Source: a bacterium (GTDB taxonomy: Bacteria > Patescibacteriota > Patescibacteriia > Magasanikbacterales > GWA2-37-8). Taken from it: a stretch of DNA of 64,000 bases. The notes beneath the pieces were generated by a model. That model saw nothing but the letters and a program-made list of their open reading frames with translations. It was not told the DNA's origin and did not search any database. Location: the NCBI GenBank assembly GCA_043810165.1, contig JBDROJ010000030.1, positions 866-64,865 on the forward strand. Reading direction: 5' to 3'. Positions 1,670 through 26,431 of the stretch are shown here, in pieces (position 1 is the stretch's first letter; every line of letters starts with the position of its first letter). The position numbers and the translations under genes are program-made.

Positions 1670-1740
1670 TCGGGGATCGTCTAATGGTAGGACACCAGGT
1701 TCTGGTCCTGGGTATCGGGGTTCAAATCCTCGTCCCCGAG
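1670..1740 (+). tRNA. tRNA-Gln (anticodon CUG)
   Basis: Acceptor TCGGGGA/TCCCCGA, D-stem GTCT/GGAC, anticodon stem CCAGG/CCTGG with loop TTCTGGT, T-arm CGGGG-TTCAAAT-CCTCG, discriminator G. Confidence 0.8.
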
Positions 1741-3315
1741 CAAACAAGGATGAGCAGGCTCTAACAGGCCTGTTTTCCTGTAAGTAGAGCCATTTTTCAG
1801 GAGTTCTGAAGTTGCGTTTAGCTTGGGCATCCACTCAGAAAGAAAAGCAAAAGATTCTGTATATTCAACATTCAATTTTCCCTCAGTATTGATTGTCATT
1901 TCCTTGAAAATTCGTTGTATAAGGATTCTTTTTTCGTCAGTGGTAGCTTTTCTGCTGTTATACTTTTCTCGGGCTGTAAACGCCAAATTATGTATCTCAA
2001 CGCCTATCTTATAGAAGTTTCTAACCCTTTTATTTAACTTTTTTAGCTTGTCAGTGATTTCTTTTTGTTGTTTTGTAAATAGCTTAAATTTCTTATTATA
2101 ATATTCTTCGGATATTTTCTTATCCAATTTATCGTCATACATTGAATCTAGTCTATTTTCTAGTTTCTCAAATTCTTTATTAAGAGATTCTCTCGTCATT
2201 TTAGTATAGTCTTTTTTACCTTTTTTACTTTTTTTTAAAACATTTGTTATCCAATCCAAAACCTCCTTATTTAAAGGTTTTATTTTTTTCATCATTTCAT
2301 TTAATTTTTCCTCAATCTTTTCTTCTTTAATATATCCTTTACGGGAACACTCTTTATAACCACGGCAAGAGCCGTAATGGTGGCCTTTTTGTGTTTGCCA
2401 ACTAATAAGACAACCACACTCCTCACAACGGATTAAGCCTTTAAAAGTATGAAATTTTTTTCTATATTGTCCCGCTTTAAGTGGTCGGTCTAATTGTGAT
2501 TGAACTTTGTTAAATAAAGTTTCACTTACTATCGGTTCTTGTTTTCCTTTGTATTCTTCATTATTCCAAATAATATATCCGCAATAAAAAGGATCACGGA
2601 GTAAACGATGTACGACAGAATTCATTACTCTTTTACCATTAACACTTCTAAAACCGTCTTTATATAATTTTTCGGCTATTCTTTTGACAGTATAATTTCC
2701 TGTACTATAAAGCTTAAAAGCTTCTTTTATATAAGGGGTTACTTTAGTATCTTGTATATGGGTCTTATGTCCTTTTTCGCCGGTGGTAATATAACCAAAC
2801 TTATTTCCACAAGGTATCCAACCAGATTCAATTTTTGCTTTTTGTCCTTTTTTAACTTCCTCGCTTAAATTATTTGTATAGAACCGTGCAATAGCGACTT
2901 TCATATCCCAAACTAAATTTTCATGAGCCCTTGTGTTTCTACTTACAACAAAGTTTTCTTTTACAAAATGAACCTCTCTTTTTTCATCGCCATTTACCCA
3001 ATCACTAATAACAGCACCGTCTTTCAAGTTTCTTGTTAAACGATCTATTTTTTCACAAAGAATAAGATTAATTTTTCTTTTCTTAACATAGCCTAGCATT
3101 TCATTAAAAGTTTTTCTTATCTGTTTACCACTCGCACTTTCAGAAATTTTAAATATTTTAGAAATCACAAGATCATTTCGCATAGCATAACTACGCAAAA
3201 GTTTTTCTTGTGCTTCTAGAGAATACCCTCGGTCTTCCTGTTCTTTGCTTGAAACACGACAGTATAAAATACATCGATTGTCTTTTTCTTTTTCCATATT
3301 ATTTTTTGTTATCAT
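1681..3315 (-). CDS. Large serine recombinase (integrase) with N-terminal resolvase domain, recombinase domain, zinc ribbon and coiled coil. Its 3' end overlaps tRNA-Gln by ~60 nt.
   Basis: N-terminal CILYCRVSSKEQ (catalytic Ser of the resolvase fold) and ...DRLTRN. The zinc-ribbon CEECGC...HYGSC is followed by a Lys/Glu-rich coiled coil. The 544-aa size fits the large-serine-recombinase class. Position next to a tRNA is the classic integration signature. Confidence 0.85.
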   Translation of the reverse strand: MITKNNMEKEKDNRCILYCRVSSKEQEDRGYSLEAQEKLLRSYAMRNDLVISKIFKISESASGKQIRKTFNEMLGYVKKRKINLILCEKIDRLTRNLKDGAVISDWVNGDEKREVHFVKENFVVSRNTRAHENLVWDMKVAIARFYTNNLSEEVKKGQKAKIESGWIPCGNKFGYITTGEKGHKTHIQDTKVTPYIKEAFKLYSTGNYTVKRIAEKLYKDGFRSVNGKRVMNSVVHRLLRDPFYCGYIIWNNEEYKGKQEPIVSETLFNKVQSQLDRPLKAGQYRKKFHTFKGLIRCEECGCLISWQTQKGHHYGSCRGYKECSRKGYIKEEKIEEKLNEMMKKIKPLNKEVLDWITNVLKKSKKGKKDYTKMTRESLNKEFEKLENRLDSMYDDKLDKKISEEYYNKKFKLFTKQQKEITDKLKKLNKRVRNFYKIGVEIHNLAFTAREKYNSRKATTDEKRILIQRIFKEMTINTEGKLNVEYTESFAFLSEWMPKLNATSELLKNGSTYRKTGLLEPAHPCLLGDEDLNPDTQDQNLVSYH

Positions 3316-3466
3316 CTTGCATATTTTTTATACGCAATTCTTTAAGTATGGAGAAATAATCAACTAAGCCATTTGCTATTTCGGAAGCATTTTTAAAAGT
3401 TAATTCTTCCCCGTATTCCTCCTTTACAATTTGTTGAAATTCTTTGATTGATTCTTCGCTAAGCAT
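3299..3466 (-). CDS. Small hypothetical protein (~55 aa), paralog of 3634..3798. Possible regulator or recombination-directionality factor.
   Basis: The track ORF 3299..3520 trimmed to the internal Met MLSEESIKEFQQIVKEEYGEELTFKNASEIANGLVDYF. It aligns with MISEQDILKLQDIIKRNYGVELSFEETSKVANDWIAVF encoded at 3634..3798. Confidence 0.4.
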   Translation of the reverse strand: MLSEESIKEFQQIVKEEYGEELTFKNASEIANGLVDYFSILKELRIKNMQDDNKK

Positions 3467-3633
3467 ATAATTATATTTAAATACAAAAAGGGACGGTCGT
3501 TGCTTACCCAATTCAAACACTCAAAGAGTATTTTTATCGGAACGAACCGCCCCTTTCTGGCGACAAAATAATAAACTCCTTGAGTTAATTATTGAATTGA
3601 GTAAGCATATAAATTATAACACAAAACGGAATT

Positions 3634-3798
3634 TAATCAATTTTTTTCAAATTTCTCTCTGTAATCAATTTCAGCCAATACTTCAAAAACAGCAATCCAA
3701 TCATTTGCCACTTTTGAGGTTTCTTCAAAACTTAATTCAACACCATAGTTTCTTTTTATAATGTCTTGAAGTTTTAGGATGTCTTGTTCGCTTATCAT
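3634..3798 (-). CDS. Small hypothetical protein (~55 aa), not in the ORF track. Its start codon overlaps the Rep stop (ATGA).
   Basis: Manual translation of the minus strand gives MISEQDILKLQDIIKRNYGVELSFEETSKVANDWIAVFEVLAEIDYREKFEKN. It is paralogous to the 3299..3466 product. The Rep TGA and this ATG share bases, which implies translational coupling. Confidence 0.4.
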
Positions 3799-4577
3799 AT
3801 TGGCTTGAATAAGAGCGAACGATTAAGCACGCCGGTTTTAAATATTAGATCATCTAATCTGTATGCTTTATATTCAACTTCGCCGACCCACTCACTCTCA
3901 AAAGTTTTTTCAAAAGACGGTGTAAGTAAAGACAAAAACCTTTCAATAAATTTAGTGGCAAGCCAGCCCAATATTTCAATTGGATCTTTGAGTGTTTGTG
4001 AACGAAAGAATTTCTTTTTTCCAAAAGTTCTTTCGTCAAACATATCTTTACTAAGATATTTACAAACATAAGCCCCGATGTTGTCTACATCTTTTAAAGT
4101 TTTAATGTCTATATTTCCATGTCCCCAAGTTTCGTGTATCACACTAAAGTGAATAAAAGGCATATCACAAAGCAAGTGATAGTGAACTGCACCACGCTTT
4201 TGAAATTCGGGAATGGCTAAATATCTAAAATTAGGATATTTATAAGTCATCCTTTTTATAAACTGATTAAATAGATAATTAGCTTGTTTAAGATCTGTGA
4301 TGTTCTCGGCAAAGGTTAAAGTCATAAATTTGGTTAATTGCGGATTTGAGTTTATCAACCGTCGTATTTCTGTTCGTGTTCGATTGACTGAATATAATTG
4401 TTTTTGCTGTTGTTTTTTTATTCTTTCGAATATATCTAATTGTTTCGGCTCTTCATGAGTTTTTTCTTTTACGCTTTCTTGCGTCCTTTCAAAGTCCCGC
4501 CAGACGTTTTTCTTGTACTTGTAAACTTCAACATACTTGCCCGACACCACAACTCTTGTGTTGTAGGTAAAGGCCAT
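3795..4577 (-). CDS. Rolling-circle replication initiator (HUH endonuclease, Rep_trans/gpII-like)
   Basis: HUH motif GAVHYHLLCDMPF and a downstream catalytic-Tyr motif GAYVCKYLSKD (YxxK). About 260 aa, as expected for phage or plasmid RCR Rep proteins. Confidence 0.7.
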   Translation of the reverse strand: MAFTYNTRVVVSGKYVEVYKYKKNVWRDFERTQESVKEKTHEEPKQLDIFERIKKQQQKQLYSVNRTRTEIRRLINSNPQLTKFMTLTFAENITDLKQANYLFNQFIKRMTYKYPNFRYLAIPEFQKRGAVHYHLLCDMPFIHFSVIHETWGHGNIDIKTLKDVDNIGAYVCKYLSKDMFDERTFGKKKFFRSQTLKDPIEILGWLATKFIERFLSLLTPSFEKTFESEWVGEVEYKAYRLDDLIFKTGVLNRSLLFKPI

Positions 4578-4663
4578 AACAATTTTTCGTTAGATGTGTG
4601 GATATAATCAAGATTAATATGTAAGACTGTATTTTTGTTTCAAATTCCCTGTGCCAAGCAATC

Positions 4664-4698
4664 TTTTTTTCGTCGTCAGGCAGGCCGACGAAAAAAAA
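4664..4698. promoter_or_regulatory. Perfect hairpin flanked by a T7 run and an A8 run in the Rep-upstream intergenic region. Candidate origin or packaging hairpin, or a bidirectional terminator.
   Basis: tttttttCGTCGtcaggcaggcCGACGaaaaaaaa, lying between the divergent Rep gene (minus) and the ArdC-N-like gene (plus). Confidence 0.45.
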
Positions 4699-4879
4699 GA
4701 TATGCTTGCCTATCCAAGAAATTTAATTAACAAAGATTACCAGTAGTTTTTACCGTATCAGGGCTATTTAGTTTAGCGTCAGCTTTTCCCGAGTAAAGGT
4801 AGTTCAAAGACTCCACCTTGACTAAGGCAAGCTATCAGACGCTCATATTTAGCCTTGTCTAATACGGCGATAAACAGCC

Positions 4880-5227
4880 TTGTCGTATTGGTTTATTTAT
4901 TGGCTGTTTTTTAATTATATGGAAAAAATAATTTCCAATTGGACGGGTTCAGAATTTACTTCTGAGTATGTCCGTCGTCAGATTCTTACTCGCTGGGGCG
5001 AGGAAGAAGCGAACAATTACGATCCTAAGAGTAATTGTTTAACTTTTAACCGTTGGCTTAAAAACGGTTTTAAAGTTAAGAAAGGCGAAAAAGCCTTAAA
5101 GTCCTTTATTGTTATTGAACAAAAGGATCAATATGGCAAAGTTATTCGCCAATTACCGAAAAGAATAAGTCTTTTCTATGCTTGCCAAGTCGAGAAAATC
5201 GGCGAGGCAAAAAGTAGTGAATCCTAA
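4880..5227 (+). CDS. ArdC N-terminal-like ssDNA-binding domain protein (possible anti-restriction function). The real start may be the Met at ~4920.
   Basis: The segment ...LTFNRWLKNGFKVKKGEKALKSF... matches the conserved (F/W)xxWxxxGxxVxKGEK signature of the ArdC_N/DUF1738 family. It is the only plus-strand gene inside the prophage. Confidence 0.4.
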   Translation: MSYWFIYWLFFNYMEKIISNWTGSEFTSEYVRRQILTRWGEEEANNYDPKSNCLTFNRWLKNGFKVKKGEKALKSFIVIEQKDQYGKVIRQLPKRISLFYACQVEKIGEAKSSES

Positions 5228-5235
5228 CGGGTTCA

Positions 5236-5934
5236 CTACTTTTTTTGCTGTTTATGATACGGAGGGATGTTTTCATCCTTTGGAAGTAGTCCAGTATTGT
5301 CGTTTGAGTGTTCTTTAATATATTCTCGGTAATATGGAAATTCAGGGTACTTAATAAAGTTCACGGCTTCGTGCGTGTTGTAGCAATTGGCTTTAGTTTT
5401 GTTAAACAAAAATAATTTACGCTTTACCGCTCGTCGTCTTAGGTTGTCATCTTTTAAATCTTGCAATTCAAAATATGAAGCCATAAAGATAAAACGAAAT
5501 AGGTTTTTAACTTCTAAAAAGTGTTGTCCTAAATCTCGTATTCTTTTATCTATATTGCTTGTGTGTTGAACCCCTGCCCAAATATCAAGCGGGATAATAT
5601 TACCGTCTTTGTCTTTTTTAACATCATGTCTATGGGCGGAAAATTTTTGTTTTGCACTCGGAGGCATTTCTTGCCACTCACGAGAATCAAAATATCCCTG
5701 TGCCTCATCAATAAAAATCTGTCCGCCTTTGATAGATAACAGTTCGGGAATTTCAGACCAAAAATATACTTTACCTAAGTTTTCTTTTTTAAGTTTTTTC
5801 TTTTCTATGTATCCGCTAAAGTCTAGCTTCCAATTTGCATATACATCATAACCTTTCAAAAACATTTCAAGTGCCTTGTAAGTCATAAACAAAGTTTTGC
5901 CAGCTCCGGGTTTTCCTGTGATAATTGTGATCAT
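5236..5934 (-). CDS. Zot/pI-like P-loop ATPase (filamentous-phage assembly protein)
   Basis: N-terminal Walker A MITIITGKPGAGKTLFMTY and IFIDEAQ (Walker B-like). The Zot family is the hallmark inovirus morphogenesis ATPase. Position after pIII/pVI is as in the Ff phages. Confidence 0.65.
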   Translation of the reverse strand: MITIITGKPGAGKTLFMTYKALEMFLKGYDVYANWKLDFSGYIEKKKLKKENLGKVYFWSEIPELLSIKGGQIFIDEAQGYFDSREWQEMPPSAKQKFSAHRHDVKKDKDGNIIPLDIWAGVQHTSNIDKRIRDLGQHFLEVKNLFRFIFMASYFELQDLKDDNLRRRAVKRKLFLFNKTKANCYNTHEAVNFIKYPEFPYYREYIKEHSNDNTGLLPKDENIPPYHKQQKK

Positions 5935-5938
5935 ATTT

Positions 5939-6184
5939 TTAAGGCTTTAAAAATGTTACCATTTTGAGAACTAATGTAATGAGAAATAATGTCATTTCAA
6001 CAAAGAGAACTAAAAGAAGAATTTTGAATAATGAGAATAAAGGGAATATCAAATCTATCTTAGCAAGTGTAGGTGTCATAGTTGCAAACGCATTATTAAC
6101 GGCAGTTATAACCGAGTTATTAGGATCAGCTTCGGGTAAAAGTGAGAATATTTTTACCAAGATTGTTTCAATTAAACTAAGCAT
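5939..6184 (-). CDS. pVI-like small hydrophobic minor coat protein
   Basis: 81 aa and strongly hydrophobic (multiple TM). It lies between the pIII-like and Zot-like genes, the same order as gIII-gVI-gI in Ff. Confidence 0.4.
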   Translation of the reverse strand: MLSLIETILVKIFSLLPEADPNNSVITAVNNAFATMTPTLAKIDLIFPLFSLFKILLLVLFVEMTLFLITLVLKMVTFLKP

Positions 6185-6189
6185 AGTGG

Positions 6190-7932
6190 TTATTCGTTAT
6201 CGCTGAATAAATGAGTAATTCTAAATATCACATACACGGCGAAGATGAGCCACAAAATCGCCACAATATATGGTCTAATACCACTAGCAAAATATTTAAC
6301 CCTGCTATCGCTTGCCGAGAATATCTTAATGTCTAAGTCATACTCGCCGTCGCCTGATACAGATTTAAAAGTTATGTCTAAGTCATCATCATCGGGAGCA
6401 GTATATGTGCCGTTAAACATGTTATAAAATCCGTCGTGGAAAGCAAAGTAATAATTAAATACAATTTTACTTCTGAGTAATTCAACTAAACGAGGAAAGA
6501 AAAAATCAAAGTCATCGGAATTATAAATAAAATCAAGGTCTGATACATAAAGTCCGAATGGGTATTGTCTTGTCATTTCGCCGTCATCTGTAAGTTGTAC
6601 TACATAGTGAATTGAATCTGTTGAAGAAGCGGTTAAGTTTACTTGATAATTCCAAGTGTCTGCCATTTGGTCTAAAGCAATACTGTGATAACTACCATTA
6701 AGCAAATCGCCGTCGGAGTTATATTGTTTAATTGTGAAATTTAAGTTTGAGAGGGTTGAAGATGTTGGATATATAAAACCAAAAGTAAATAGACTTGAAG
6801 TTGTACCAGAGGGCAAAGTCAAAGCTGTGTCAAAAACTGGTGATTTAATTTTTATATCGTAATCGTCGTAATAATCAAAATTAAAATACCAGTCGTCGGG
6901 ATAACCCTCTATAATTTCAAGCGGTGATAAAGTTATATAGTCCATTAAGTCATCATAGTCCACGCAGTCGCCTGATACACTAGATATTTCTCGAGCAATA
7001 AGTCGGTGGTTTGTTGCTTCATGATAAAACTGACCGGAAAATTCATTATCTATGCAATCAACATTATAAGTAATATTTTCATAGCCTAGACAATCATTTG
7101 TAAAACCAATTCTATTTTCGCCCACAATCGGACAAGTTCCCGTTACAGTAATGTAGCTGTCATTTATTGCCGGACTATCATTATCATGGCTTGTTATCTC
7201 AAATGGAATAGTAATTGGATCAGCACTAAAAACTTTTACAAATATATCTGTTGATTCGCCACTGGTATATCTAGTCGCACCTTTGTAGTAATAAGCTTGA
7301 CCGTATGGGTAATTTTCACTTGAACCTAAATAATTTGAATTGTTATACATCGTTCTTAATACTGAGCCGGGTTCTCTGTCGTCGTTAGAGGAAATATTTA
7401 AAAGAGCAAAATAATTAGTGTTTGGAGAAACTGAAACAGGTTCGTCAAAGCTAAAATATGCCCATTTGTAATACAATCCGTCGTCTGTTCCACCCTCATC
7501 ACTTGCATAACAATTAACATCATAGTTAATCAATGCGTTTAATTCTTCGGCGGTAAATTCTTTTGAGGCTAAAGGACTTGAGCAACCAGAATACCAACCG
7601 TTTGTCGCTGAATCACACAAAGTTAAAGTTTTTGGTTCGGTAAAGTCGGTAAGACGACAAAGTTTAAATGCCACTGTACTAATTGCTTCCGTGTCGGCCG
7701 TGGTTATAAATTTTTGTCCGTGTCCCGTTTCGTTGCTCACTCGGATAAACCATGTATACCAATTTGAAGCCGGACCAAAATCTACGATGTCGCCTGTATA
7801 ACTATCTTCTGCCTTAGTTATTTGAGCAAACAACAACGATGTGAATAGAGATACTACTAACAATAATATTATTTTTAGTTTATTGTATTTTTTCATAGAC
7901 ATATCTGATTTTGGTACTAGTTTTTTCTTCAT
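6190..7932 (-). CDS. pIII-like adsorption or minor coat protein (secreted, with C-terminal membrane anchor)
   Basis: N-terminal signal peptide KIILLLVVSLFTSLLFAQITKA. Long Asp/Ser/Thr/Tyr-rich ectodomain. Single C-terminal TM PYIVAILWLIFAVYVIF followed by a short tail. Topology and position match g3p. Confidence 0.5.
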   Translation of the reverse strand: MKKKLVPKSDMSMKKYNKLKIILLLVVSLFTSLLFAQITKAEDSYTGDIVDFGPASNWYTWFIRVSNETGHGQKFITTADTEAISTVAFKLCRLTDFTEPKTLTLCDSATNGWYSGCSSPLASKEFTAEELNALINYDVNCYASDEGGTDDGLYYKWAYFSFDEPVSVSPNTNYFALLNISSNDDREPGSVLRTMYNNSNYLGSSENYPYGQAYYYKGATRYTSGESTDIFVKVFSADPITIPFEITSHDNDSPAINDSYITVTGTCPIVGENRIGFTNDCLGYENITYNVDCIDNEFSGQFYHEATNHRLIAREISSVSGDCVDYDDLMDYITLSPLEIIEGYPDDWYFNFDYYDDYDIKIKSPVFDTALTLPSGTTSSLFTFGFIYPTSSTLSNLNFTIKQYNSDGDLLNGSYHSIALDQMADTWNYQVNLTASSTDSIHYVVQLTDDGEMTRQYPFGLYVSDLDFIYNSDDFDFFFPRLVELLRSKIVFNYYFAFHDGFYNMFNGTYTAPDDDDLDITFKSVSGDGEYDLDIKIFSASDSRVKYFASGIRPYIVAILWLIFAVYVIFRITHLFSDNE

Positions 7933-8092
7933 CGTTGCTTAATTTTTTGAATAAAGAATTGATTACTTCAATTTCTTCCGGTTCTTCACGATATTCTTCA
8001 CTAAATTGCTGATCTGCCATAAAATCTTCTATACATTCGTAGAGAAAATTAAGTATAAAATTTCTTTCTTCTTGATTTATGTATATGCGCAT
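7880..8092 (-). CDS. Hypothetical acidic 70-aa protein. It overlaps the pIII-like start.
   Basis: ORF track only. Glu-rich. No motif recognised. Confidence 0.25.
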   Translation of the reverse strand: MRIYINQEERNFILNFLYECIEDFMADQQFSEEYREEPEEIEVINSLFKKLSNDEEKTSTKIRYVYEKIQ

Positions 8093-8190
8093 ATGTTTTA
8101 TTTTATTAGTTTAGATTTAAGAATTTTAATTCGTTATGCCTGTTAGCGGGGGCTTAGGCCATTTGAAAGCCAGCCCCCGCCAGACAAGTT

Positions 8191-8460
8191 CTATTTCATG
8201 AATCTGCGAGCTAAACGCCAAACGAAACCAATTGAAAAGATGATCACACCAACGATTACGATGTTTGCGATGTTAGCGGTTATTACACCGACAACATTTT
8301 CTTTCATCGTATCAACTACCATACCGGTAGTAGAGGCGACATCTGAATCCACGGCTGCGAAAGCATTAGTTCCAGCCAATAATCCACCGGCAACAGCTAG
8401 GCTGAAAGCGGTAATTTTGGCTTTAGATCCAGTCAATAAACTTTTGATTTTGCTAATCAT
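8191..8460 (-). CDS. Major coat protein (g8p-like)
   Basis: 89 aa. Signal peptide ...LLAGTNAFA|AVDSD. The mature ~52-aa peptide has an acidic N-terminus, a hydrophobic core IVIVGVIIFSIGFV and a basic C-terminus WRLARRFMK. This is the canonical inovirus coat architecture. Confidence 0.7.
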   Translation of the reverse strand: MISKIKSLLTGSKAKITAFSLAVAGGLLAGTNAFAAVDSDVASTTGMVVDTMKENVVGVITANIANIVIVGVIIFSIGFVWRLARRFMK

Positions 8461-8471
8461 AGTCTTATTGA

Positions 8472-8618
8472 TTAAATTTTCTTAATGAATAACAATAATA
8501 TGCCGACCACTGCTCCCAGAATAAGACCCAAAACAATCGCTTTAGCAAAGACTATTCCAATAAGTTGGAAATCATCTAAGTAGCACGAATTGTTGAGTAA
8601 GATATATTGAGAACACAT
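8472..8618 (-). CDS. Tiny TM protein (48 aa; g7p/g9p-like), not in the ORF track
   Basis: Manual translation gives MCSQYILLNNSCYLDDFQLIGIVFAKAIVLGLILGAVVGILLLFIKKI. Its ATG lies 1 nt after the upstream ORF's TAA. Confidence 0.45.
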   Translation of the reverse strand: MCSQYILLNNSCYLDDFQLIGIVFAKAIVLGLILGAVVGILLLFIKKI

Positions 8619-8619
8619 A

Positions 8620-8730
8620 TTACTTGCCTGTGGTTATTGCAAAGAAAATACTCAAGACCGTTAATAGCGAGAGAGGAAGAATGAGGCTCAACCCGAGACC
8701 GGCAAATATGTTGTTTATTAGTCCTGTCAT
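8620..8730 (-). CDS. Tiny TM protein (36 aa; g7p/g9p-like), not in the ORF track
   Basis: Manual translation gives MTGLINNIFAGLGLSLILPLSLLTVLSIFFAITTGK. It is tightly packed between neighbouring ORFs. Confidence 0.45.
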   Translation of the reverse strand: MTGLINNIFAGLGLSLILPLSLLTVLSIFFAITTGK

Positions 8731-8734
8731 AAAT

Positions 8735-8887
8735 TTAAGGTTTAAAGATGAGTAAAACGATTACTACCGTAAGCAAGCCAAACAATAGTCCAAACGAAAC
8801 TGTAATAAGTTGGCTGAAAAAGTTAATCAGATCCAACGCTTCGCTGGTTAAGGCATAAGTTGTACTGGCTGTGGTTAGGAGGTTCAT
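8735..8887 (-). CDS. Tiny TM protein (50 aa), not in the ORF track
   Basis: Manual translation gives MNLLTTASTTYALTSEALDLINFFSQLITVSFGLLFGLLTVVIVLLIFKP. It starts 2 nt after the ssb stop. Confidence 0.45.
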   Translation of the reverse strand: MNLLTTASTTYALTSEALDLINFFSQLITVSFGLLFGLLTVVIVLLIFKP

Positions 8888-8889
8888 AA

Positions 8890-9153
8890 CTATTTTTTGT
8901 TAGGAATGTAGTAATCGGCAAAAGCCCTCTTTCTCTTTTTATCAACAATGTGATAAGGGTAAATTTCAATATCTAATGTTATTGTTTCACCCTGTTTGCC
9001 GACTTTTAGATCCATATCGGATACATTTACCTTTATTGGGTAAATACTCCCGACTGGTTCTATGAATAAAGTTCGGCTTTTCCCGGGCGTACCGTCTTTA
9101 CATGTATATTCCCGGAGTTCCTCCTTTTTGAGGACACCTGTTAATTTAAACAT
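8890..9153 (-). CDS. ssDNA-binding protein (gVp-like)
   Basis: 87 aa. Beta-rich and Lys/Gly-rich, as expected for an OB-like fold. It sits immediately upstream of the small-TM and coat genes, which is the g5p position. Confidence 0.45.
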   Translation of the reverse strand: MFKLTGVLKKEELREYTCKDGTPGKSRTLFIEPVGSIYPIKVNVSDMDLKVGKQGETITLDIEIYPYHIVDKKRKRAFADYYIPNKK

Positions 9154-9262
9154 AATGGTATATTCTTTAGATTTTGAATTAAATCCGCAATCGACCTTTT
9201 ATTTTGCGTGCTTGTATTGTAAGTGAACAAGGTTCTGAAAAGTTCTTGTACAAGTTTTCAGA

Positions 9263-9292
9263 ATAATCAAAAAAGCCCCAAGTTATGGGACT
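9263..9292. terminator. Hairpin plus T/A runs downstream of the 9317 gene
   Basis: aaaaAGCCCCAagttaTGGGACTtttt, an imperfect stem with flanking A and T runs. Confidence 0.35.
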
Positions 9293-9316
9293 TTTTGCCG
9301 TTATTTTTTCAGAACT

Positions 9317-10192
9317 TTAGAGGTATTTCTTATTTAATTTTACTTTTCCTTTTCTACCAGTATTAAATTTTAAAAAGTCTTTGTGTTTTGTTTCTTTTTC
9401 TATTTTTTTGCTTAACTCAAAACAAATATTATGATATCTTTTCCAATTATTTTTATCTTTTGTATAGTCTAAATCATAAAATTCATCCTCAGCTATTTCG
9501 GCATAGTAAAAATCGTCTTTTAGATTATCTTTATTGGTAATAAAAATATGATGTAATAATTTGTGGGCATTAGTAATTTTATCTTGTTTGGATATTTTTA
9601 CTTTCACTCCTTGAACATACAAAACACTCTTTTTGTCGTCAAAGTAGGTTTTATTATCCTCGTCATCGCAAGCAAAAAAGCACTTTTTGTCTAATCTATC
9701 AAATACTTCGCTATTTACAACCTCAAAAGATAGTTCTAACATTTGTTTGGAATATGGCTTTGAAAATAATTTGCAAAAATCATCAAAGTCGTCCTTATCT
9801 TGAACACAACATTTTTTAAGTTTTTTCATTTTCTTGTGAACAAGCTCTAAATTAGAGTAGTAAGTCCAAAACTCTTTTGAAAACAAAACATCGCCCTTGA
9901 TTTTTAAGAATTCGTCCTCGTCCCCATACCCATCAGAGCTTTCGCCCATTAGCTTTATGTGGTCGTCAAAAATACCCTGCATGATATTTTTGGCAAGAGG
10001 ATCTGAGTGCAAGAAGTAAATATACTTGTAAATTATGACGAACCGTTGGAATATACTTGTCTCAATACAAAAAAGTCGAGTAAACTCGAGCATTTTTTCC
10101 TTGATTTTGCAAGCATACTGAAGCATGGGTTTTGGTGGAAAATAAGCATATTTTAGTTTATTTATTATACAGGAAAAAATCGGGGTGGACAA
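9317..10192 (-). CDS. Hypothetical Asp/Lys-rich protein at the right edge of the prophage
   Basis: ORF track only. No motif recognised. The true start may be an internal Met. Confidence 0.3.
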   Translation of the reverse strand: MSTPIFSCIINKLKYAYFPPKPMLQYACKIKEKMLEFTRLFCIETSIFQRFVIIYKYIYFLHSDPLAKNIMQGIFDDHIKLMGESSDGYGDEDEFLKIKGDVLFSKEFWTYYSNLELVHKKMKKLKKCCVQDKDDFDDFCKLFSKPYSKQMLELSFEVVNSEVFDRLDKKCFFACDDEDNKTYFDDKKSVLYVQGVKVKISKQDKITNAHKLLHHIFITNKDNLKDDFYYAEIAEDEFYDLDYTKDKNNWKRYHNICFELSKKIEKETKHKDFLKFNTGRKGKVKLNKKYL

Positions 10193-10292
10193 ATTTTGCT
10201 AAATATGCCTAAATTTGGACAAAAATATCAAATTGTTGTAAAATAAGGGAAGAAAAATACTTCTATTTAAATAAAAAATTCATTATAAAAAT

Positions 10293-12209
10293 ATGGTAAA
10301 TTTTAAAGACAAATTAGAAAATCTATTAAAGAAAGAAAAAGATTTTTTAGATGAAAATGGTGTTATTGATTATATTAAAATAAAAGACTTAGCAGATAAG
10401 ATTGATAGTAGATTAATAGAACTTTTGATTACAAATAATGAAATAAAGAAAAAGTTTTTTTCAAAAATAAAAGATGTTTATGTTTTTAACATCAATCATT
10501 TTAAATTTTTCTTAGATGAAAATAAAGTAAATAATTCATACACTCAATATAAAAATAGAATTGGTTTATCCGACGGAAAAGAATTTATAAATGATAGAAA
10601 TGATACTGTTTTAGATTTTCCTTTTAAGGATTGTATATTGGAAGGTGGACAAAGCACAGAAGAAGGCATTGATACTTATTTTGAATATTCTGATAAAACT
10701 GAAAAATATGAAGAAAAGACAGCAAAAAGAAATGAAGTATTCTTTAATCAAGTACTTGCACATGATGAAATAGATAGACTTTGTGATAGAAAAGCTCTTG
10801 TAAATTGGAAACGATTTACTAAAGATAGCAAGAAAGATGGTGAAATTGTAAAAGAAATAAAACGAGATAAAAAAGGTTTAATACAAGAGAATTTAATTAT
10901 AAAAGGTAATAACTTACTTGCTTTACATAGTCTAAAATCTGAATTTGCAGGGAATATAAAACTTATTTATATTGATCCTCCTTATAATACAAAAACAGAC
11001 AGTTTTGTTTATAATGATAACTTTAATCATAGTACATGGCTAACCTTTATGAAAAACAGGTTGGAGTTAGCTAATGAATTATTAAGGGATGACGGAATAC
11101 TTTTTGTGCAATGTGATGATAATGAACAATCTTATTTAAAAGTATTAATGGATGAAATATTTGATAGGGAAAATTTTGTAGGAACCTTGATTCATCAAAG
11201 AGCAAAAGGAGGCGGAAATGCAAAACATATCGTAAAAGGACATGATTATATTACCATCTTTGCAAAAAAACTAAGTAAAAACCATAAATTTATTAGAGAA
11301 AAAGTCATTCAAGCAAAAGTCATTGAAATAGATGGTGTTTTCTACTTAAGAAATGATGATGTTGTTAGAAAAGTTTTTGGTAAATATGATACATCTTTAG
11401 GAGATAGAAGATGTTTTTATGAAGAACTTGAAAAATATAAAAATGAAAAACAAATTAAAGAAATCAAAGAAAAAATTAAAAATAAAGATTATGTTTTAGA
11501 AAACTTTGGTAATGGAATGCAAGTGATAGTAAAATATACACCCATAGAAGAATCCTATTCAAAGTTGTATTCAATAGTCAAAGCATTATCTGAAGATGGT
11601 AATAATGAAATAAGTGAGCTTGGATTAGATTTTAGTAATCCAAAACCAGAACAAATTATAAAATTTTTAATTGAAGCGGTTACTAAACCTACAGATATTG
11701 TTTTAGATTATCATCTTGGATCAGGAACTACCTGTGCAGTTGCTCACAAAATGAATAGACAATATATTGGGATTGAACAAATGGATTATATTGAAACTGT
11801 TGCTGTAGAAAGAATGAAAAAAGTTATTAAAGGTGAACAAGGAGGAATTTCAAAATCAGTTGATTGGAAAGGTGGTGGCGAATTTATTTATTGTGAGCTT
11901 GCAAAATGGAACGAACAAGCAAAAGAAGAAATACAAAACGTAAAAGATTTATCTGCTTTCGTAAAGCTCTTTGATACTTTGTATAAAAAATATTTCCTAA
12001 ATTACAATGTTAAAATTAAGGATTTTAAAGAAAATATAATGAAAGAAGAAAACTTTAAAAAACTTACTCTTATACAACAAAAGAAAATGTTTTTGGCTAT
12101 GCTTGATTTAAATCAAATGTATGTTAATGAAAGCGAAATGGCAGATAAAAAATATGGGATTAGCGTTGAAGATCAAAAACTAACAAATACTTTCTATAGT
12201 AAAAAATAA
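10293..12209 (+). CDS. mod: Type III restriction-modification methyltransferase (Mod), N6-adenine beta-class
   Basis: Motif IV IYIDPPYN comes before motif I DYHLGSGTT. That order defines beta-class N6A/N4C MTases. 638 aa. Directly followed by a Res-type helicase. Confidence 0.8.
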   Translation: MVNFKDKLENLLKKEKDFLDENGVIDYIKIKDLADKIDSRLIELLITNNEIKKKFFSKIKDVYVFNINHFKFFLDENKVNNSYTQYKNRIGLSDGKEFINDRNDTVLDFPFKDCILEGGQSTEEGIDTYFEYSDKTEKYEEKTAKRNEVFFNQVLAHDEIDRLCDRKALVNWKRFTKDSKKDGEIVKEIKRDKKGLIQENLIIKGNNLLALHSLKSEFAGNIKLIYIDPPYNTKTDSFVYNDNFNHSTWLTFMKNRLELANELLRDDGILFVQCDDNEQSYLKVLMDEIFDRENFVGTLIHQRAKGGGNAKHIVKGHDYITIFAKKLSKNHKFIREKVIQAKVIEIDGVFYLRNDDVVRKVFGKYDTSLGDRRCFYEELEKYKNEKQIKEIKEKIKNKDYVLENFGNGMQVIVKYTPIEESYSKLYSIVKALSEDGNNEISELGLDFSNPKPEQIIKFLIEAVTKPTDIVLDYHLGSGTTCAVAHKMNRQYIGIEQMDYIETVAVERMKKVIKGEQGGISKSVDWKGGGEFIYCELAKWNEQAKEEIQNVKDLSAFVKLFDTLYKKYFLNYNVKIKDFKENIMKEENFKKLTLIQQKKMFLAMLDLNQMYVNESEMADKKYGISVEDQKLTNTFYSKK

Positions 12210-12210
12210 T

Positions 12211-14958
12211 ATGGAAGAATTGTATCAACAAATAAATACAGAAAAAAATACACTTAAAAAATATGCTCCGGAAGTCATTGAGATTCCTAAATATATTTTA
12301 AATAATATTAAATATGATTTATTTGAGTGGCAAAAAGAAGCATTGGAAAATTTTTTTGTGTATGAAAAAGATCATAAACAAAACCCCACCCATTTAATGT
12401 TTAATATGGCTACGGGAACAGGTAAAACCTTAGTCATGGCCTCTCTTATTTTGTTTTATTATCAAAAAGGTTATAGAAATTTTATATTTTTTGTAAATCA
12501 AAATAATATTGTGGATAAAACAGAAAATAATTTTATTAATAATACTCACAATAAATATTTATTTACAGATAAAATTACTATTGACGGGAAAATTATAAAT
12601 ATTAAAAAAGTTAATAACTTTTCTGACAATTCTTCTGACATACAAATAAAATTTACTACCATACAAAAACTATACAATGATATACATTTAGAAAAAGAAA
12701 ACAATATTACATTGGAAGAACTTTATAAAAAAGATATTATAATGTTAGCTGATGAAGCACATCATCTTAATACAAATACAAACAAAAAGCAGAAAGAGTT
12801 AGATCTAAATTTGGAATTAAAAGATAATGCAAGCAAAGAAGATATTGAAAGAAAAGGCTGGGAACATACCGTTATTGAATTGATTTTAAAAAAGAATGGA
12901 AAAGAAAGTAATAATATTTTATTAGAGTTTACTGCGACTATTCCGACAGAGCCTAATGTTGTAAAAAAATATAAAGATAAGACAATTTATAAATTTAGTC
13001 TAAAAGATTTTTTAAAGAAAGGTTATACAAAAGAAATCAATTTGATTGGTTCAACCTTTAGTAAAAAAGAAAGAATTTTACATGCCTTGCTTTTTAATTG
13101 GTATAGACATGAAGTTGCTTTAAAAAACAATATACATAATTTTAAACCTGTTATCCTTTTCAGAAGTAAAACTATTGAAGAATCAGAAAAAGATTATCAA
13201 GTTTTTTTGAATTTGATAAATAATTTAAATATTAAAGATTTTGCATTTTTTAATAAAATAAAAGATAAAATTACAGAAAACGATAATCCCTATGAACAAG
13301 GAAGATCTCGCACAGAAGATGTTTTAAATTTTGTAGAAAATACAAAAGGTAGATATTCTGAAGTGGTAAATTTTATAAAAGAAAATTTTCAAGAAAAAAA
13401 CTTGATAATTACTAACTCAAAAGATAAAGATGCTAAAGGTGAAAAAGGCGGTGAAAAAACAACAGAAAAACAGAATGATCTTCTAAATAATTTAGAAGAT
13501 ATAAATAATCACATAAGAGGTATTTTTACAGTAAAACGATTAACAGAGGGTTGGGATGTATTAAATTTGTTTGACATAGTCCGTCTTTATAAGGGGCAGA
13601 ATGTTGGAGGAACACACAAAGGAAAAACACCCGAAACGACAATACAAGAAAAGCAATTAATTGGTAGAGGTGTTAGATATTGTCCTTTTACTTACAAAGA
13701 TGAACAAAGAAATAAAAGAAAGTTTAATAATAATTTGAAAAATGAGCTAAGAGTATTGGAAGAACTTTATTATTATACTTACGATGACCCAAACAATAAA
13801 GCAGAACACAACTATATTATAGAATTGAAAGCCGAACTAAGAAAAGACGGCTATATTGATGATAATAAAATTGTTAAAAAATTTGACTTAAAAAAAGAAT
13901 TTAAAGATATTCCTTTTTATAAAAAAATTAAAATTTGGAAAAATAATCAAATTGACAATCCAGATAGACAAAAAGAAAACTTGAATACTTTAGCTAAAGA
14001 TTTTTTTAGCTCATATACAATTAGTGGTATTTCTTTGTCAGAAGACTGGATGAAAAATTTAGATGATGAAGATGAAATGCAAAGATTAATCTTATCAGAA
14101 CAAAATTTAAAAGTAATTAATGATAAAACTTTTAAAGATTTTGAATATAATATCTTTAGAAAAGCGATACACATAAAATCACAAAAGGAAAATTCTTTTT
14201 ATAGATTTGATAATTTGAAAGATAATTTGAAAATAAATAGTATAGATGATTTGTTAGGAAAAGATTTTTTTGGTTCTTTTAAAATTAATATTATTGTAGA
14301 AAAGAAAACAAATTTTGAAGATATTGATAATGAAGAAAAATTAAAGATTATTTCTAAATTTCTTAATGATATTGAAAATAAACTTAAATCATATATAAAA
14401 CCAAAGATAGGAACGCCTGAATTTAAAGCTTATAAATTTTCAGATATTTTTGATAAACCTAAAACAAAAAGCGTTGATAAAAAAACAGTAGAAGATTCAG
14501 AAAATTTAGCTGATGTGTTAAAAAATGAAGAATGGTATATTTTGAATGATTTTGTTGGTACTGATCAAGAAATAGAGCTTATTAAATTTATACAAGAAAG
14601 AGTTGGTAATTTAGATGAAAAGTATAAAGAATATTATCTTTTAAGAAATGAAGAAGTTTATAAAATATATGACTTTGAAGAAGGTCGTGGATTTCAGCCG
14701 GATTTCTTATTGTTTTTAAAAGGCAAAAAAGACAAAGTTTACTATCAAATTTTTATTGAACCAAAACAAAAAAAATACATGACTTCGGAAAATGAAATAT
14801 GGAAAGAAAATTTCTTAGAGCAAATTAGTGAAAAATTTGGAGATAAAAAAATATTAAAGGAAGAAAATGAAAATTATAAATTATTTGGGTTGCCTTTCTT
14901 TAATAATGAAGAGGAATATAGAAATAATTTTGAAGAAAACTTTGGTAAATTAATTTAA
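12211..14958 (+). CDS. res: Type III restriction enzyme Res subunit (SF2 helicase plus endonuclease)
   Basis: Walker A MATGTGKT and DEAH box IIMLADEAHHLN. 915 aa. Starts 2 nt after the mod stop. Confidence 0.8.
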   Translation: MEELYQQINTEKNTLKKYAPEVIEIPKYILNNIKYDLFEWQKEALENFFVYEKDHKQNPTHLMFNMATGTGKTLVMASLILFYYQKGYRNFIFFVNQNNIVDKTENNFINNTHNKYLFTDKITIDGKIINIKKVNNFSDNSSDIQIKFTTIQKLYNDIHLEKENNITLEELYKKDIIMLADEAHHLNTNTNKKQKELDLNLELKDNASKEDIERKGWEHTVIELILKKNGKESNNILLEFTATIPTEPNVVKKYKDKTIYKFSLKDFLKKGYTKEINLIGSTFSKKERILHALLFNWYRHEVALKNNIHNFKPVILFRSKTIEESEKDYQVFLNLINNLNIKDFAFFNKIKDKITENDNPYEQGRSRTEDVLNFVENTKGRYSEVVNFIKENFQEKNLIITNSKDKDAKGEKGGEKTTEKQNDLLNNLEDINNHIRGIFTVKRLTEGWDVLNLFDIVRLYKGQNVGGTHKGKTPETTIQEKQLIGRGVRYCPFTYKDEQRNKRKFNNNLKNELRVLEELYYYTYDDPNNKAEHNYIIELKAELRKDGYIDDNKIVKKFDLKKEFKDIPFYKKIKIWKNNQIDNPDRQKENLNTLAKDFFSSYTISGISLSEDWMKNLDDEDEMQRLILSEQNLKVINDKTFKDFEYNIFRKAIHIKSQKENSFYRFDNLKDNLKINSIDDLLGKDFFGSFKINIIVEKKTNFEDIDNEEKLKIISKFLNDIENKLKSYIKPKIGTPEFKAYKFSDIFDKPKTKSVDKKTVEDSENLADVLKNEEWYILNDFVGTDQEIELIKFIQERVGNLDEKYKEYYLLRNEEVYKIYDFEEGRGFQPDFLLFLKGKKDKVYYQIFIEPKQKKYMTSENEIWKENFLEQISEKFGDKKILKEENENYKLFGLPFFNNEEEYRNNFEENFGKLI

Positions 14959-14969
14959 TATATCTTAAT

Positions 14970-16442
14970 GTGAATTTATATTTTTCTGATTTTTTTAAAG
15001 TAGATCCTAAGATTATTGAAGAATATGGTGCTTTTGACATATCGCTAATTTTTGATTTACCTCTGTTTATCGATCCTTTTTTATTGTTTAATAGTAAAAA
15101 AGATGATTATAAAGAACTTCATGAAAAGATAATTGATTATTTAAAATTTTTAAAAGATAAGTCTGTAAATGGTAGTCTAGACAGCGGTGCTTTAAAAACT
15201 TGGTATTTATTTCAAGAGGTTGAACAAAATTGGTTTGGTTTCTCGTTAAAAGGTAATAAAGGTAGTGGTTTGGGCATGGATTTTGCCACAGCTTTAAATG
15301 AAAATCTATATAAAATATTTAGTAAATTTGGAGAAGAAGATATTACTAAAGGAAGTCATCTTGAAAAGTTATGCTTAATAAAAGATGGTATAGGTAAAGA
15401 TAATATTAGTGATTTTGCTACAAATTTGATTAAAGATTTTTTGTTGGAATATACAGAGACATTTACAAAAAAATATATAGACCCTGCATTAACAAAAAAA
15501 TTTAGAGTAAAAAAAGCAAAATTTAATTATAAAACCGAGACATGGGAAGAAGGAATATATCAATTACCTAAACATGAAGATAATTTTGTTTTATTAACTC
15601 CTAAAGAATTGCTTACAAAAGATGATACGTGGATTAACAAGACTGATTTAATAAAAGATTTTGAAAATATACCAGATTCTATCTCGGATGATCAACTTAG
15701 ATTTCAAATTAATAATTATTTTAAAAGTCAATTAACTAATGAACCAAATAAAGAACCAACAAAAAAAGAAAAAATAAAGGCTACTTTTGCAACACTCCAA
15801 GAATTTCCTGACTTAATAGATTTTTTTATAAAATATAAAGAAGATAATGGTGAGAGAGCAGAAAGTATTAGTGATGAAAAAGTTAAATTTTCATCAAATG
15901 TATATGTAGAAAATGTAAAAAAAATAATTCCTGAATTATCCAAAATAGGTTTTTATACATCTTATAAAGAATTTAGTTATGACGAGGCTCATACCCAAAT
16001 TTTAAATTTAAAAGATTTTATTGAAAATAATGACGGTTATAGACTGTTTTATGATAATAACGATAATGTTATAAGATCGGAAAAAGAATTACAATTACTT
16101 TTCGCTTTGGTGTGTAAAAATTCTATTTTTGATGTCAACAGAGAGCCAAATAATGGTCGTGGTCCTGTTGATTTTGCAATTTCAATGGGTCGTTCTGACA
16201 AGACACTTATCGAATTTAAACTGGCTAAAAATACCAGTTTAAAGAAAAATTTACAAAAACAAGTTGAAATATATCAAAATGCCAATGGAACAGATAAAGC
16301 TTTTAAAGTGATTATCTATTTTACAGAAAAAGAACAAGAACGAGTATATAAAATTTTAAGAGTGCTTAATTTAAACAATGAATCTAATATAGTTTTAATT
16401 GACGCTAGAATTGATAATAAGCCGTCAGCCTCGAACGCTTAA
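14970..16442 (+). CDS. Hypothetical 490-aa protein with a C-terminal PD-(D/E)xK nuclease-like motif. Candidate defence effector co-transcribed with the Type III R-M.
   Basis: The C-terminal NGRGPVDFAISMGRSDKTLIEFKLAK carries D...E-x-K with the spacing of the restriction-endonuclease fold. The ORF starts 11 nt after the res stop. Confidence 0.45.
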   Translation: MNLYFSDFFKVDPKIIEEYGAFDISLIFDLPLFIDPFLLFNSKKDDYKELHEKIIDYLKFLKDKSVNGSLDSGALKTWYLFQEVEQNWFGFSLKGNKGSGLGMDFATALNENLYKIFSKFGEEDITKGSHLEKLCLIKDGIGKDNISDFATNLIKDFLLEYTETFTKKYIDPALTKKFRVKKAKFNYKTETWEEGIYQLPKHEDNFVLLTPKELLTKDDTWINKTDLIKDFENIPDSISDDQLRFQINNYFKSQLTNEPNKEPTKKEKIKATFATLQEFPDLIDFFIKYKEDNGERAESISDEKVKFSSNVYVENVKKIIPELSKIGFYTSYKEFSYDEAHTQILNLKDFIENNDGYRLFYDNNDNVIRSEKELQLLFALVCKNSIFDVNREPNNGRGPVDFAISMGRSDKTLIEFKLAKNTSLKKNLQKQVEIYQNANGTDKAFKVIIYFTEKEQERVYKILRVLNLNNESNIVLIDARIDNKPSASNA

Positions 16443-16455
16443 TTTATAATATAAT

Positions 16456-16833: not shown

Positions 16834-16868
16834 AGAAGTTGTAGTGAAAAATAGCAAAAATAATTTAT

Positions 16869-17072
16869 ATGCAATTTACCGATAAACAATTAGATAGTTT
16901 CATCGCTTTATATAAAAAAGAGTTTGGCGACGAATTAAGCAAAGGTGAGGCTCTCCAAAAAGCAACCTCTTTGGTTTCTATGGTAAAATTGACATATGTA
17001 CCCATGACAGAAAAAGATTTTAAAGAAAGTATGGAAGCTTGTATTAAAAGTCAAAAAACACAAATTAATTAA
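16869..17072 (+). CDS. Hypothetical 67-aa protein
   Basis: ORF track only. Confidence 0.25.
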   Translation: MQFTDKQLDSFIALYKKEFGDELSKGEALQKATSLVSMVKLTYVPMTEKDFKESMEACIKSQKTQIN

Positions 17073-18423: not shown

Positions 18424-18437
18424 TAAGTAAGTAATAG

Positions 18438-26000: not shown

Positions 26001-26003
26001 TTT

Positions 26004-26414: not shown

Positions 26415-26431
26415 AGTTTGAATTGAGTTAG

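Follow-up and report, generated by a model that had tools for sequence, protein, structure and literature searches.

Inoviruses were extended to the Candidate Phyla Radiation (CPR) by Roux et al. 2019 (Nat Microbiol), who listed serine recombinases among the integration genes of these phages and gave as a CPR example (Supplementary Table 4) the contig Ga0076004_106 of Magasanikbacteria GW2011_GWA2_56_11. A homologue of the element on that contig lies in a 64,000-nucleotide stretch of DNA (contig JBDROJ010000030.1 of assembly GCA_043810165.1, positions 866 to 64,865 of the forward strand), which is called the window below and whose numbering is used throughout. Comparison of gene identities, synteny, att architecture and cargo inclusion leads us to read window positions 1742–17121 (15,380 bp) as a 15.4-kb temperate filamentous prophage of the inovirus type, lysogenised in a Patescibacteria (CPR) chromosome and carrying a restriction-modification (RM) cargo, with a probability of roughly 0.8.

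The Ga0076004_106 prophage (locus L051, and L017 in IMG/VR; L numbers denote related loci) has the same gene order as the window element from a conserved 269-amino-acid (aa) protein to the serine recombinase, with protein identities of 53–82% (82% for Zot and 75% for Rep). It too lies at a tRNA gene with type III-like RM genes adjoining, but it differs in its type of integrase, in its use of tRNA-Glu and in the presence of a LexA-like repressor gene. Because the published example contig carries this homologue, a CPR inovirus is not new, and the window prophage is a further well-resolved member of a family already in the public catalogues. An initial annotation of the window, made from its letters alone, is thus borne out on the CPR host and not on novelty; what is added here is the corrected borders, the serine-integrase sites at tRNA ends and the universal RM slot.

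The Ff phages (M13, fd and f1) share with the window element the order gene V-like, VII/IX-like, VIII, III, VI and I, as well as structured intergenic hairpins, rolling-circle replication and a length-flexible genome. The window element differs from them in having a PF23343-type Rep, a pI-like protein without a membrane segment and one gene on the opposite strand, in being temperate with its own integrase and 6.9 kb of defence cargo, and in having no pIV secretin, as is expected for a host without an outer membrane. Ralstonia phages phiRSM1 and phiRSM3 have a homologous Rep (26% identity, E 1e-10), and phiRSM is reportedly integrated at the 3′ end of a tRNA-Ser gene (Askora et al. 2011, cited in PMC7192596 for a serine-recombinase integrase). 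The phiRSM enzyme is a small resolvase-like one (catalytic domain and helix-turn-helix only) that uses a 13-bp core, whereas the window element has a three-domain large serine recombinase, a 4–5-nt core and attP/attB half-site logic; only Rep is common to the two. The element also does not belong with the CTXphi-type phages that use XerCD at dif, as it has its own serine recombinase and a tRNA site.

Relatives were retrieved with Zot and Rep (at least 19 IMG/VR contigs, 16 contigs of GTDB genomes and 80 metagenome contigs), and tblastn with every window protein finds one conserved gene order in about 80 of the retrieved contigs: the 269-aa protein, an OB-fold protein, p50, p36, p48, coat, pIII-like, pVI-like, Zot, an antisense ArdC-N-like protein, Rep, one or two small helical proteins and the serine recombinase. 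The loci in which the core is kept number 19 in IMG/VR, 16 in GTDB genomes and about 60 in metagenomes. Scans of viral contigs with the integrase and the 269-aa protein gave nothing new. The named host contigs of related prophages are from Candidatus Falkowbacteria, Komeilibacteria and Magasanikbacteria, and the best named homologues of the MurJ protein encoded in the window are in Magasanikbacteria and Patescibacteria (58–63% identity); together these identify the host as a CPR bacterium. Some metagenome-assembled genome records label contigs with this phage family as Gammaproteobacteria, Omnitrophota, Micrarchaeota, Bacteroidales or Cloacimonas (among them the titles of L020–L035), for which mis-binning or labels applied in bulk are a likelier cause than a broad range of hosts. 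Seven further contigs of 4.3–8.2 kb (L100, L101, L104, L106, L108, L109 and L116) have terminal direct repeats of 55–127 nt and a Zot only 24–29% identical to that of the window; each is probably the complete, circular genome of an inovirus from another lineage. The coordinates of the features discussed below are collected in Table 1.

Table 1. Features of the prophage and its immediate neighbours in the window
Feature	Position	Strand	Evidence or remark
tRNA-Gln(ctg), putative host half of attL (B′ arm)	1670–1741	+	ARAGORN; Rfam 56.5 bits
Putative P arm of attL, inside 3′ coding end of integrase gene	1742–1790	+	Hairpin ~1752–1776, then T-run; fold −18.3 kcal/mol
Large serine recombinase (SR544 type), 544 aa	1681–3315	−	Pfam Resolvase, Recombinase and Zn_ribbon_recom; phrog_95
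Small helical protein p73	3299–3520 (probable start near 3466)	−	Paralogue of p53 and p67; no family match
Small helical protein p53	3637–3798	−	Paralogue of p73; tblastn conservation
Rep, HUH rolling-circle replication initiator, 260 aa	3795–4577	−	PF23343, 7e-20; phrog_3419 (rolling circle), 1.4e-32
Conserved intergenic region between ArdC-like gene and rep, 302 nt	4578–4879	−	Alignment of 14 loci
ArdC N-terminal-domain-like protein, 115 aa	4880–5227	+	PF08401, 23.3 bits (cut-off 22.6)
Zot/pI-like assembly ATPase, 232 aa	5236–5934	−	PF05707, phrog_197, phrog_1675
pVI-like hydrophobic protein, 81 aa	5939–6184	−	Hydropathy and synteny; no family match
pIII-like adsorption protein, 580 aa	6190–7932	−	Hydropathy: N-terminal signal-like segment, C-terminal anchor
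Acidic open reading frame, 70 aa (p70)	7880–8092	−	tblastn matches only in L001, L038 and L044 (closest relatives)
Major coat protein precursor, 89 aa	8191–8460	−	Sequence features; 64–99% identity among relatives
p48, p36 and p50, tiny single-transmembrane reading frames in pVII/pIX-like position	8472–8618, 8620–8730, 8735–8887	−	Spacing 1–11 nt
OB-fold protein in gene V position, 87 aa	8890–9153	−	Structure model is an OB fold
Conserved 269-aa protein	9317–10126	−	True start is M23 of a 291-aa reading frame
Divergent promoter region at phage core/cargo boundary	10127–10292 (166 nt)		Two TTTGTCCA motifs
Type III RM system: Mod 10293–12209, Res 12211–14958	10293–14958	+	Pfam, PADLOC
p490	14970–16442	+	Resembles PADLOC candidate PDC-M36A, 1.3e-22; phrog_30194, 1.9e-31
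p125, no assigned family	16456–16833	+	
p67	16869–17072	+	Paralogue of p53 and p73
Proposed right end: P′ arm 17099–17121 and core GAGC 17122–17125 (+ strand)	17099–17125	−	P′ consensus
5′-truncated large serine recombinase (SR452) of a second inovirus type, outside prophage	17065–18443	−	Recombinase and Zn ribbon domains
5′-truncated rve-family transposase, neighbour	18438–19028	+	Pfam rve, rve_3 and rve_2; profile matched only from position 23

Attachment sites at the 3′ ends of tRNA genes

The product of the integrase gene shows all three large-serine-recombinase domains (PF00239 Resolvase, 2e-23; PF07508 Recombinase, 1e-16; PF13408 Zn_ribbon_recom, 4e-6) and matches the phrog_95 integrases at 5.7e-78; its similarity to CcrC, CcrB and XisF stays below the NCBIfam cut-offs. 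The reading frame runs antisense through 61 nt of the tRNA-Gln(ctg) gene, which a tRNA-Glu gene (1588–1660) adjoins, in agreement with the overlap of about 60 nt given in the initial annotation. This overlap is explained by a crossover at the terminal 3′ bases of the tRNA (core GAGC at 1738–1741), so that the last 20 integrase codons are host tRNA sequence read antisense. The integrase is 544 aa long in the integrated and in the reconstructed circular form alike. The P arm just inside the prophage is a hairpin followed by a T-run in the direction of the tRNA, and this pair of features is kept in all relatives with an SR544-type integrase, whichever tRNA they occupy; the phage thus gives the tRNA gene a new terminator.

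The opposite end was located by comparison. Far junctions were recognised first in L059 and L061, which served as the template, and then in other loci, and a host terminator hairpin, GCTC and the conserved P′ arm follow one another in L049, L029, L047, L028/L071, L059, L061 and L062 (at tRNA-Trp the core is GCAC instead of GCTC). When attB is reconstructed from these junctions it consists of the tRNA followed by its own terminator, as expected of an unoccupied site. The P′ consensus drawn from four other loci matches exactly one site in the 64-kb window, at 17099–17125, where 0.00 matches are expected by chance, and it is this match that sets the span of the prophage at 1742–17121.

Near-identical phages found at different tRNA genes fix the point of crossover. 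In the pairs L059 (tRNA-Asn) and L061 (tRNA-Gln), and L026 (tRNA-Gln) and L055 (tRNA-Asn), the sequences diverge immediately after GCTC, which is the complement of the last bases of the tRNA; this puts the crossover at the very 3′ terminus of the tRNA, which stays whole. In addition, all seven site pairs show a T-loop-like motif (..TTCxGAAC) whose distance from the core, measured to the end of the motif, is 22 nt in the tRNA arm and 27 nt in the P′ arm. In serine-integrase attB sites the motif bound by the zinc-ribbon domain (ZD) lies 5 bp closer to the centre than in attP (PMC3783163), and since the shift seen here equals this published signature, it is strong support, by comparison of sequences, that these are true att sites. 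The large serine integrases of tailed phages (Listeria A118/LI, phiC31 and Bxb1) resemble the window enzyme in their Resolvase, Recombinase and Zn ribbon domains, their short core and their quasi-symmetric att sites with this 5-bp shift. They differ from it in that the window enzyme targets the 3′ ends of tRNA genes and has its attP in its own 3′ coding end together with a tRNA terminator; according to Mageeney et al. 2020 (PMC7192596), use of tRNA genes by this class of integrase had not previously been reported.

The initial annotation had proposed integration at tRNA-Gln by a serine integrase rather than by hijacking of XerCD, which the rebuilt att sites corroborate, and had suggested imperfect repeats of the tRNA 3′ end near 10.2 or 17.1 kb. 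A P′ arm with GAGC is indeed present at 17.1 kb, but a long tRNA-derived repeat is not: a repeat search, a comparison of 12-mers in 12 loci, Smith-Waterman alignment of attL with the right ends and local alignment of the tRNA arm revealed no direct repeat of the 3′ end of tRNA-Gln above background. None would be expected with a shared core of only 4–5 nt, well short of the direct repeat of at least 10 bp that Roux et al. 2019 took as their att criterion. A search for 11-mers shared among the upstream flanks of SR544-type loci was likewise of no use. The predicted attP reads ...CATCCTTGTTT GCTC GCATACGCGGACGGGTTCAGAAC..., and its junction can also be written ...GAGCCTGCTCATCCTTGTTT-GCTC-GCATACGCGGACGGGTTCAGAACTTTTTTT....

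With three or four exceptions (L040, L072, L077 and L086/87), all well-flanked loci have an integrase gene whose 3′ end extends, in antisense, into the gene for a tRNA (Gln, Asn, Trp, Glu or Ser). Several other loci that appeared to be non-tRNA exceptions have tRNA-Asn genes split in the anticodon loop by an insert, which in L044 (14077–14413) is a group I intron (RF00028, 86.9 bits), and it is because of this intron that ARAGORN missed the split genes. Four unrelated contigs (L044, L045, L053 and L071/L028) have this insert, with conserved sequence, close to the 3′ end of the integrase gene; Rfam gave no match to it in L053, L071 and L045, where the contigs end too soon. In L086 (14155–16281), and also in L087, the SR544-type integrase is followed by GCAGGCCATAGCAAAGGATGTTGGAAC and host-like genes with no tRNA, and this may be an alternative, non-tRNA attachment site. 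A reading of L086 as a circular or attP form was rejected since host-like genes follow the site.

In outline, then, the 544-aa recombinase would have joined the phage attP to the 3′ terminus of tRNA-Gln by recombination at the shared core GAGC/GCTC. The tRNA gene would be left intact and gain a phage-supplied hairpin terminator that forms part of the 3′-terminal coding sequence of the integrase gene. The presence of the same T-loop-like motif in the P′ arm, 5 bp farther from the core, suggests that the integrase reads the acceptor end and T-loop of the tRNA as an attB half-site.

Core genes and intergenic region

The core module occupies 1742–10192, mainly on the minus strand, and all of its reading frames described in the initial annotation were confirmed at their coordinates. 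That annotation had placed a full inovirus gene set at 1670–10250; the module itself is upheld by profile matches and synteny, but its extent is not, as the prophage ends at 17121 and the cargo had been left outside (a possible end at 17.1 kb had been named). The three outcomes that the annotation named as refuting it (no profile support for Zot or Rep, a coat candidate without a cleavable signal peptide, and related genomes with these genes as conserved chromosomal ones) do not refute it.

Rep belongs to the ORF2/G2P replication family and has the motifs HYH at residue 132 and YxxK at 170/174, as predicted for an HUH/YxxK initiator. Its tblastn matches include the Reps of Ralstonia RSM1 and Spiroplasma SVGII3, which with the faecal bajarodino viruses are its nearest named phage relatives. 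The Zot/pI-like protein scores 35.8 bits against PF05707 (cut-off 20.3), matches phrog_197 at 5e-19 and phrog_1675 (protein I of M13) at 2e-8, contains the expected Walker A motif (GKPGAGKT) and is 77–96% identical among relatives; Dulem and bajarodino viruses and a Thermus inovirus are its nearest named phage relatives.

The structural genes conform to the pattern that had been described for them. The signal-like N-terminus of the coat precursor ends in AFA/A, and the predicted mature protein of 54 aa begins with acidic residues, continues through a single hydrophobic segment and ends in a basic tail, as in g8p; its matches, to the TrbC/VirB2 pilin family and to phrog_34573, are weak. The pIII-like protein has hydrophobic segments at both ends, in line with the predicted signal and anchor, and its N-terminal ~240 residues are variable, most relatives aligning only from about residue 240; the pVI-like protein was likewise recognised from hydropathy and synteny. 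The three tiny reading frames of 48, 36 and 50 aa have one hydrophobic segment each and keep their order in dozens of loci. The 87-aa protein in gene V position, earlier called gVp-like, models as an OB fold and is probably a single-stranded DNA (ssDNA)-binding protein. It is uncertain whether the acidic p70 frame is a gene.

The Ff-like order stands from the putative ssDNA-binding protein to gene I, but Rep follows gene I instead of preceding the ssDNA-binding gene, and the gene II position is occupied by the conserved 269-aa protein. The start of the latter was placed from homologues, which align from residue 20–30 of the longer frame, and a promoter/terminator scan gives the gene its own promoter (10192–10164) and terminator (9296–9270). 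The protein has no match in Pfam, PHROGs, NCBIfam, PADLOC or a PDB profile search, and a single-sequence AlphaFold model (pLDDT 37) is unusable.

The ArdC-N-like gene keeps its antisense position in nearly all relatives; ArdC N-terminal domains are ssDNA-binding domains of the anti-restriction type. Small protein p73 always lies directly upstream of the integrase, and from this position it (and also p53) could be a directionality factor or a regulator.

Between the ArdC-N-like gene and rep, a region of 302 nt is conserved to the same degree as coding sequence and contains a long imperfect hairpin at 4775–4843, which folds on the phage-sense strand, a second hairpin near 4659–4704 and an invariant block directly upstream of rep. 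In the alignment of 14 loci, 95.5% of the cells of the 4775–4843 hairpin are paired and 17 pairs show compensatory changes; none of 500 shuffles matched the observed values, and controls in which the fold was slid along the alignment were 40–54% paired. By analogy with the Ff intergenic region, it is probably the ssDNA origin and/or packaging-signal region.

State, extent and cargo of the prophage

Beyond the core GAGC of the right junction there is, instead of host DNA, the 3′ end of a second integrase gene. This remnant, SR452, is 58–78% identical to full-length integrases of related inoviruses, no Resolvase (catalytic) domain was found in it, and its own P arm, with a hairpin at 17137–17158, is joined to the prophage P′ arm. 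Homology to integrases ends at 18443, next to the truncated transposase, and the junction 18443/18444 looks like a deletion scar by which most of an older stacked prophage was removed. The simplest reading is that this tRNA-Gln gene probably had two inoviruses stacked at it, of which the outer was later lost for the most part; the host-side arm of the far junction would have been replaced by the 3′ end of the second, decayed integrase. The possibility that the 17.1-kb site is an intact attP of SR452 was rejected, since the arm fits the SR544-type P′ (4 differences in 27 positions from L049) better than the SR452 type, and inversion scenarios for p67 and SR452 were dropped in favour of stacked prophages. 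No convincing candidate for a native tRNA-Gln terminator or host B arm was found beyond 17.1 kb.

Stacking or decay of elements at a single tRNA is also suggested at two other loci. In L059 the P′ arm occurs twice, at L059:398 and L059:1819, a distance of 1.4 kb, and in L057 (37–1640) an additional full-length serine recombinase gene and, after it, a P′-like arm lie upstream of the cargo. Between the insertion sequence (IS) fragment and the host genes of the window, at 19095–20783, is a gene for a PIF1/RecD-like helicase with a C-terminal HTH_40 domain that matches the PADLOC candidates PDC-S68 and PDC-M16A; it may be left-over cargo of the deleted phage.

Several observations weigh against a functional temperate inovirus bounded at 1742 and 17121, and they are taken here with the alternatives to which they point. 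In about 25 relatives the 269-aa gene is separated from the cargo by a gene for a LexA-like repressor (S24 peptidase) of 199 aa (e.g., L053:5319–5918 and L026:5357–5956); this gene is absent from the window, where only the promoter region at 10127–10292 is present. The foreign arm at the far junction, made up of the decayed integrase and then the IS fragment, makes excision competence uncertain, and no circular contig of the prophage's own family was recovered among about 100 related loci. These points would fit a grounded or domesticated remnant, a set of inoviral genes that no longer excises or forms virions and is kept by its RM genes acting as an addiction module. We consider this unlikely, though it is the alternative that survives best. 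All 15 core reading frames are intact; L001 and L038 have the same core at 85–100% protein identity (68–69% for the less conserved p53 and p70), which suggests a circulating population; and the B arms of relatives have no conserved sequence, so that a foreign arm may not matter for excision. Its activity, competence to excise and virion form are inferred.

A second alternative concerns extent. Nucleotide homology of the core to relatives ends at about 10.13–10.2 kb, which alone would suggest a boundary there, and the G+C content falls from 0.34 in the core to 0.25 in the cargo. The IMG/VR borders of five relatives (L006, L008, L009, L017 and L018) moreover start exactly at the first base of the LexA-like gene and exclude the cargo. 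The prophage might thus end near 10.2 kb, and the region from 10.3 to 17.1 kb with its type III RM genes would be an independent defence island or host DNA at a tRNA hot spot. This is improbable in view of the unique P′ match at 17099–17125 and of the other seven loci, in all of which the terminator/GCTC/P′ junction lies beyond the RM genes. Furthermore, the methyltransferase gene is always at the same phage promoter and in the same orientation, whatever the tRNA or host, and L026 and L054/55 have at least 6 kb of cargo-side flank in common despite their different tRNAs. On the reading preferred here, with the prophage extending to 17121, the cargo slot lies between the P′ arm and the lysogeny/regulatory end and holds in the window the type III RM system, a PDC-M36-like gene and two small genes.

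The cargo (6.9 kb) begins with a type III arrangement, Mod followed by Res in one operon. Mod has the domains PF01555 (N6_N4_Mtase) and PF12564 (TypeIII_RM_meth) and matches PADLOC MTase_III at 1e-200; Res has PF04851 (ResIII) and matches PADLOC REase_III at 5e-109. Every relative examined has, directly next to the corresponding phage promoter region and divergent from it, a methyltransferase gene that is usually followed by one for a nuclease. The systems vary between loci and include type III, fused type I/IIG-like, Eco57I-like, Dam with AlwI, N4/N6 methyltransferases with MvaI/BcnI or an EndoVII-like nuclease, and C5 methyltransferases with HNH and MazG. Prophages bounded by att sites that enclose their own cassette are found in L059 (12.4 kb), L061 (10.6 kb), L029 (13.4 kb) and L049.

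An 87%-identical type III cassette occupies the same slot in L053, an otherwise 58–82% related phage; L029 and L030 have cores that are 89.6% identical and different cargo; and L049 and L057 have common cargo and different integrases. From these comparisons the cassettes move independently of the core. Since the catalogued borders begin at the LexA-like gene, public records omit the defence cargo (2–7 kb is cut off) and the real att sites. The principle of a defence slot is already known, because a hypervariable one has been described in Vibrio CTX-type inoviruses (Commun Biol 2025, PMC12715192). Those phages, like the window element, have a fixed slot with swappable anti-phage systems that include RM. 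The window element differs in its host phylum, in the location of the slot between the P′ arm and the lysogeny promoter and in its own serine integrase in place of XerCD at dif, and in its family the slot holds a methyltransferase or RM system in every locus examined. The cargo may protect the lysogen and help to retain the prophage.

Assignment of several virion genes also calls for caution. The Zot/pI protein shows no membrane segment by hydropathy, unlike Ff pI; the coat, pVI-like, pIII-like and tiny proteins have no significant family match, their roles being assigned from sequence features and position; and the coat cleavage site was placed by eye, without a dedicated tool. That the element is instead a non-viral integrative plasmid-like or conjugative element, with a Zot-like ATPase and a pilin-like small protein, is nevertheless very improbable: the best Pfam match of the coat candidate is a weak one to TrbC/VirB2 pilin (E 0.002) and ArdC-N-like genes are typical of conjugative plasmids, but family scans of the window proteins found no relaxase, coupling protein or type IV secretion genes, the order ssb, tiny transmembrane frames, coat, pIII-like, pVI-like, pI is that of Ff, the nearest named relatives of Rep and Zot are inoviruses and plectroviruses, and Roux et al. 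2019 classed relatives as inoviruses.

Two features of the flanking host DNA may be recorded. To the left, a GIY-YIG domain reading frame (1097–1408) precedes a 19-nt direct repeat, TCTCGCAATGACAGGAACA, which occurs twice, 26 nt apart (1530–1548 and 1556–1574), upstream of tRNA-Glu. To the right, 22115–27875 encodes large host surface-type proteins, one of 1080 aa with Big_5 domains, one with a dockerin and one with PEGA.

Implications for CPR bacteria and their phages

The comparison gives base-level att sites for CPR inovirus elements and a natural set of large serine integrases whose targets are the 3′ ends of five kinds of tRNA gene and whose attP and attB sequences are clear. Integrases with such short, well-defined sites are of practical interest as genome-engineering tools.

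The odds seem to us about even that a broader statement holds: that the CPR inovirus family has made large serine integrases into general tRNA-end integrases, which take the universal acceptor end and T-loop as attB half-site and have attP inside their own 3′ coding end, and keeps a slot for swappable RM or defence cassettes that is always filled. If so, the integrase reading frame would have the same length in both states and integration would hand the tRNA a new terminator. Close relatives of the integrase would hop between at least five tRNA species, and each insertion would leave a tRNA-like P′ arm usable by a further phage, giving rise to stacked prophages. Filamentous prophages are suggested as carriers of RM systems in these small-genome bacteria, and, on the broader statement, filamentous phages would be a main vehicle of RM traffic among CPR bacteria.

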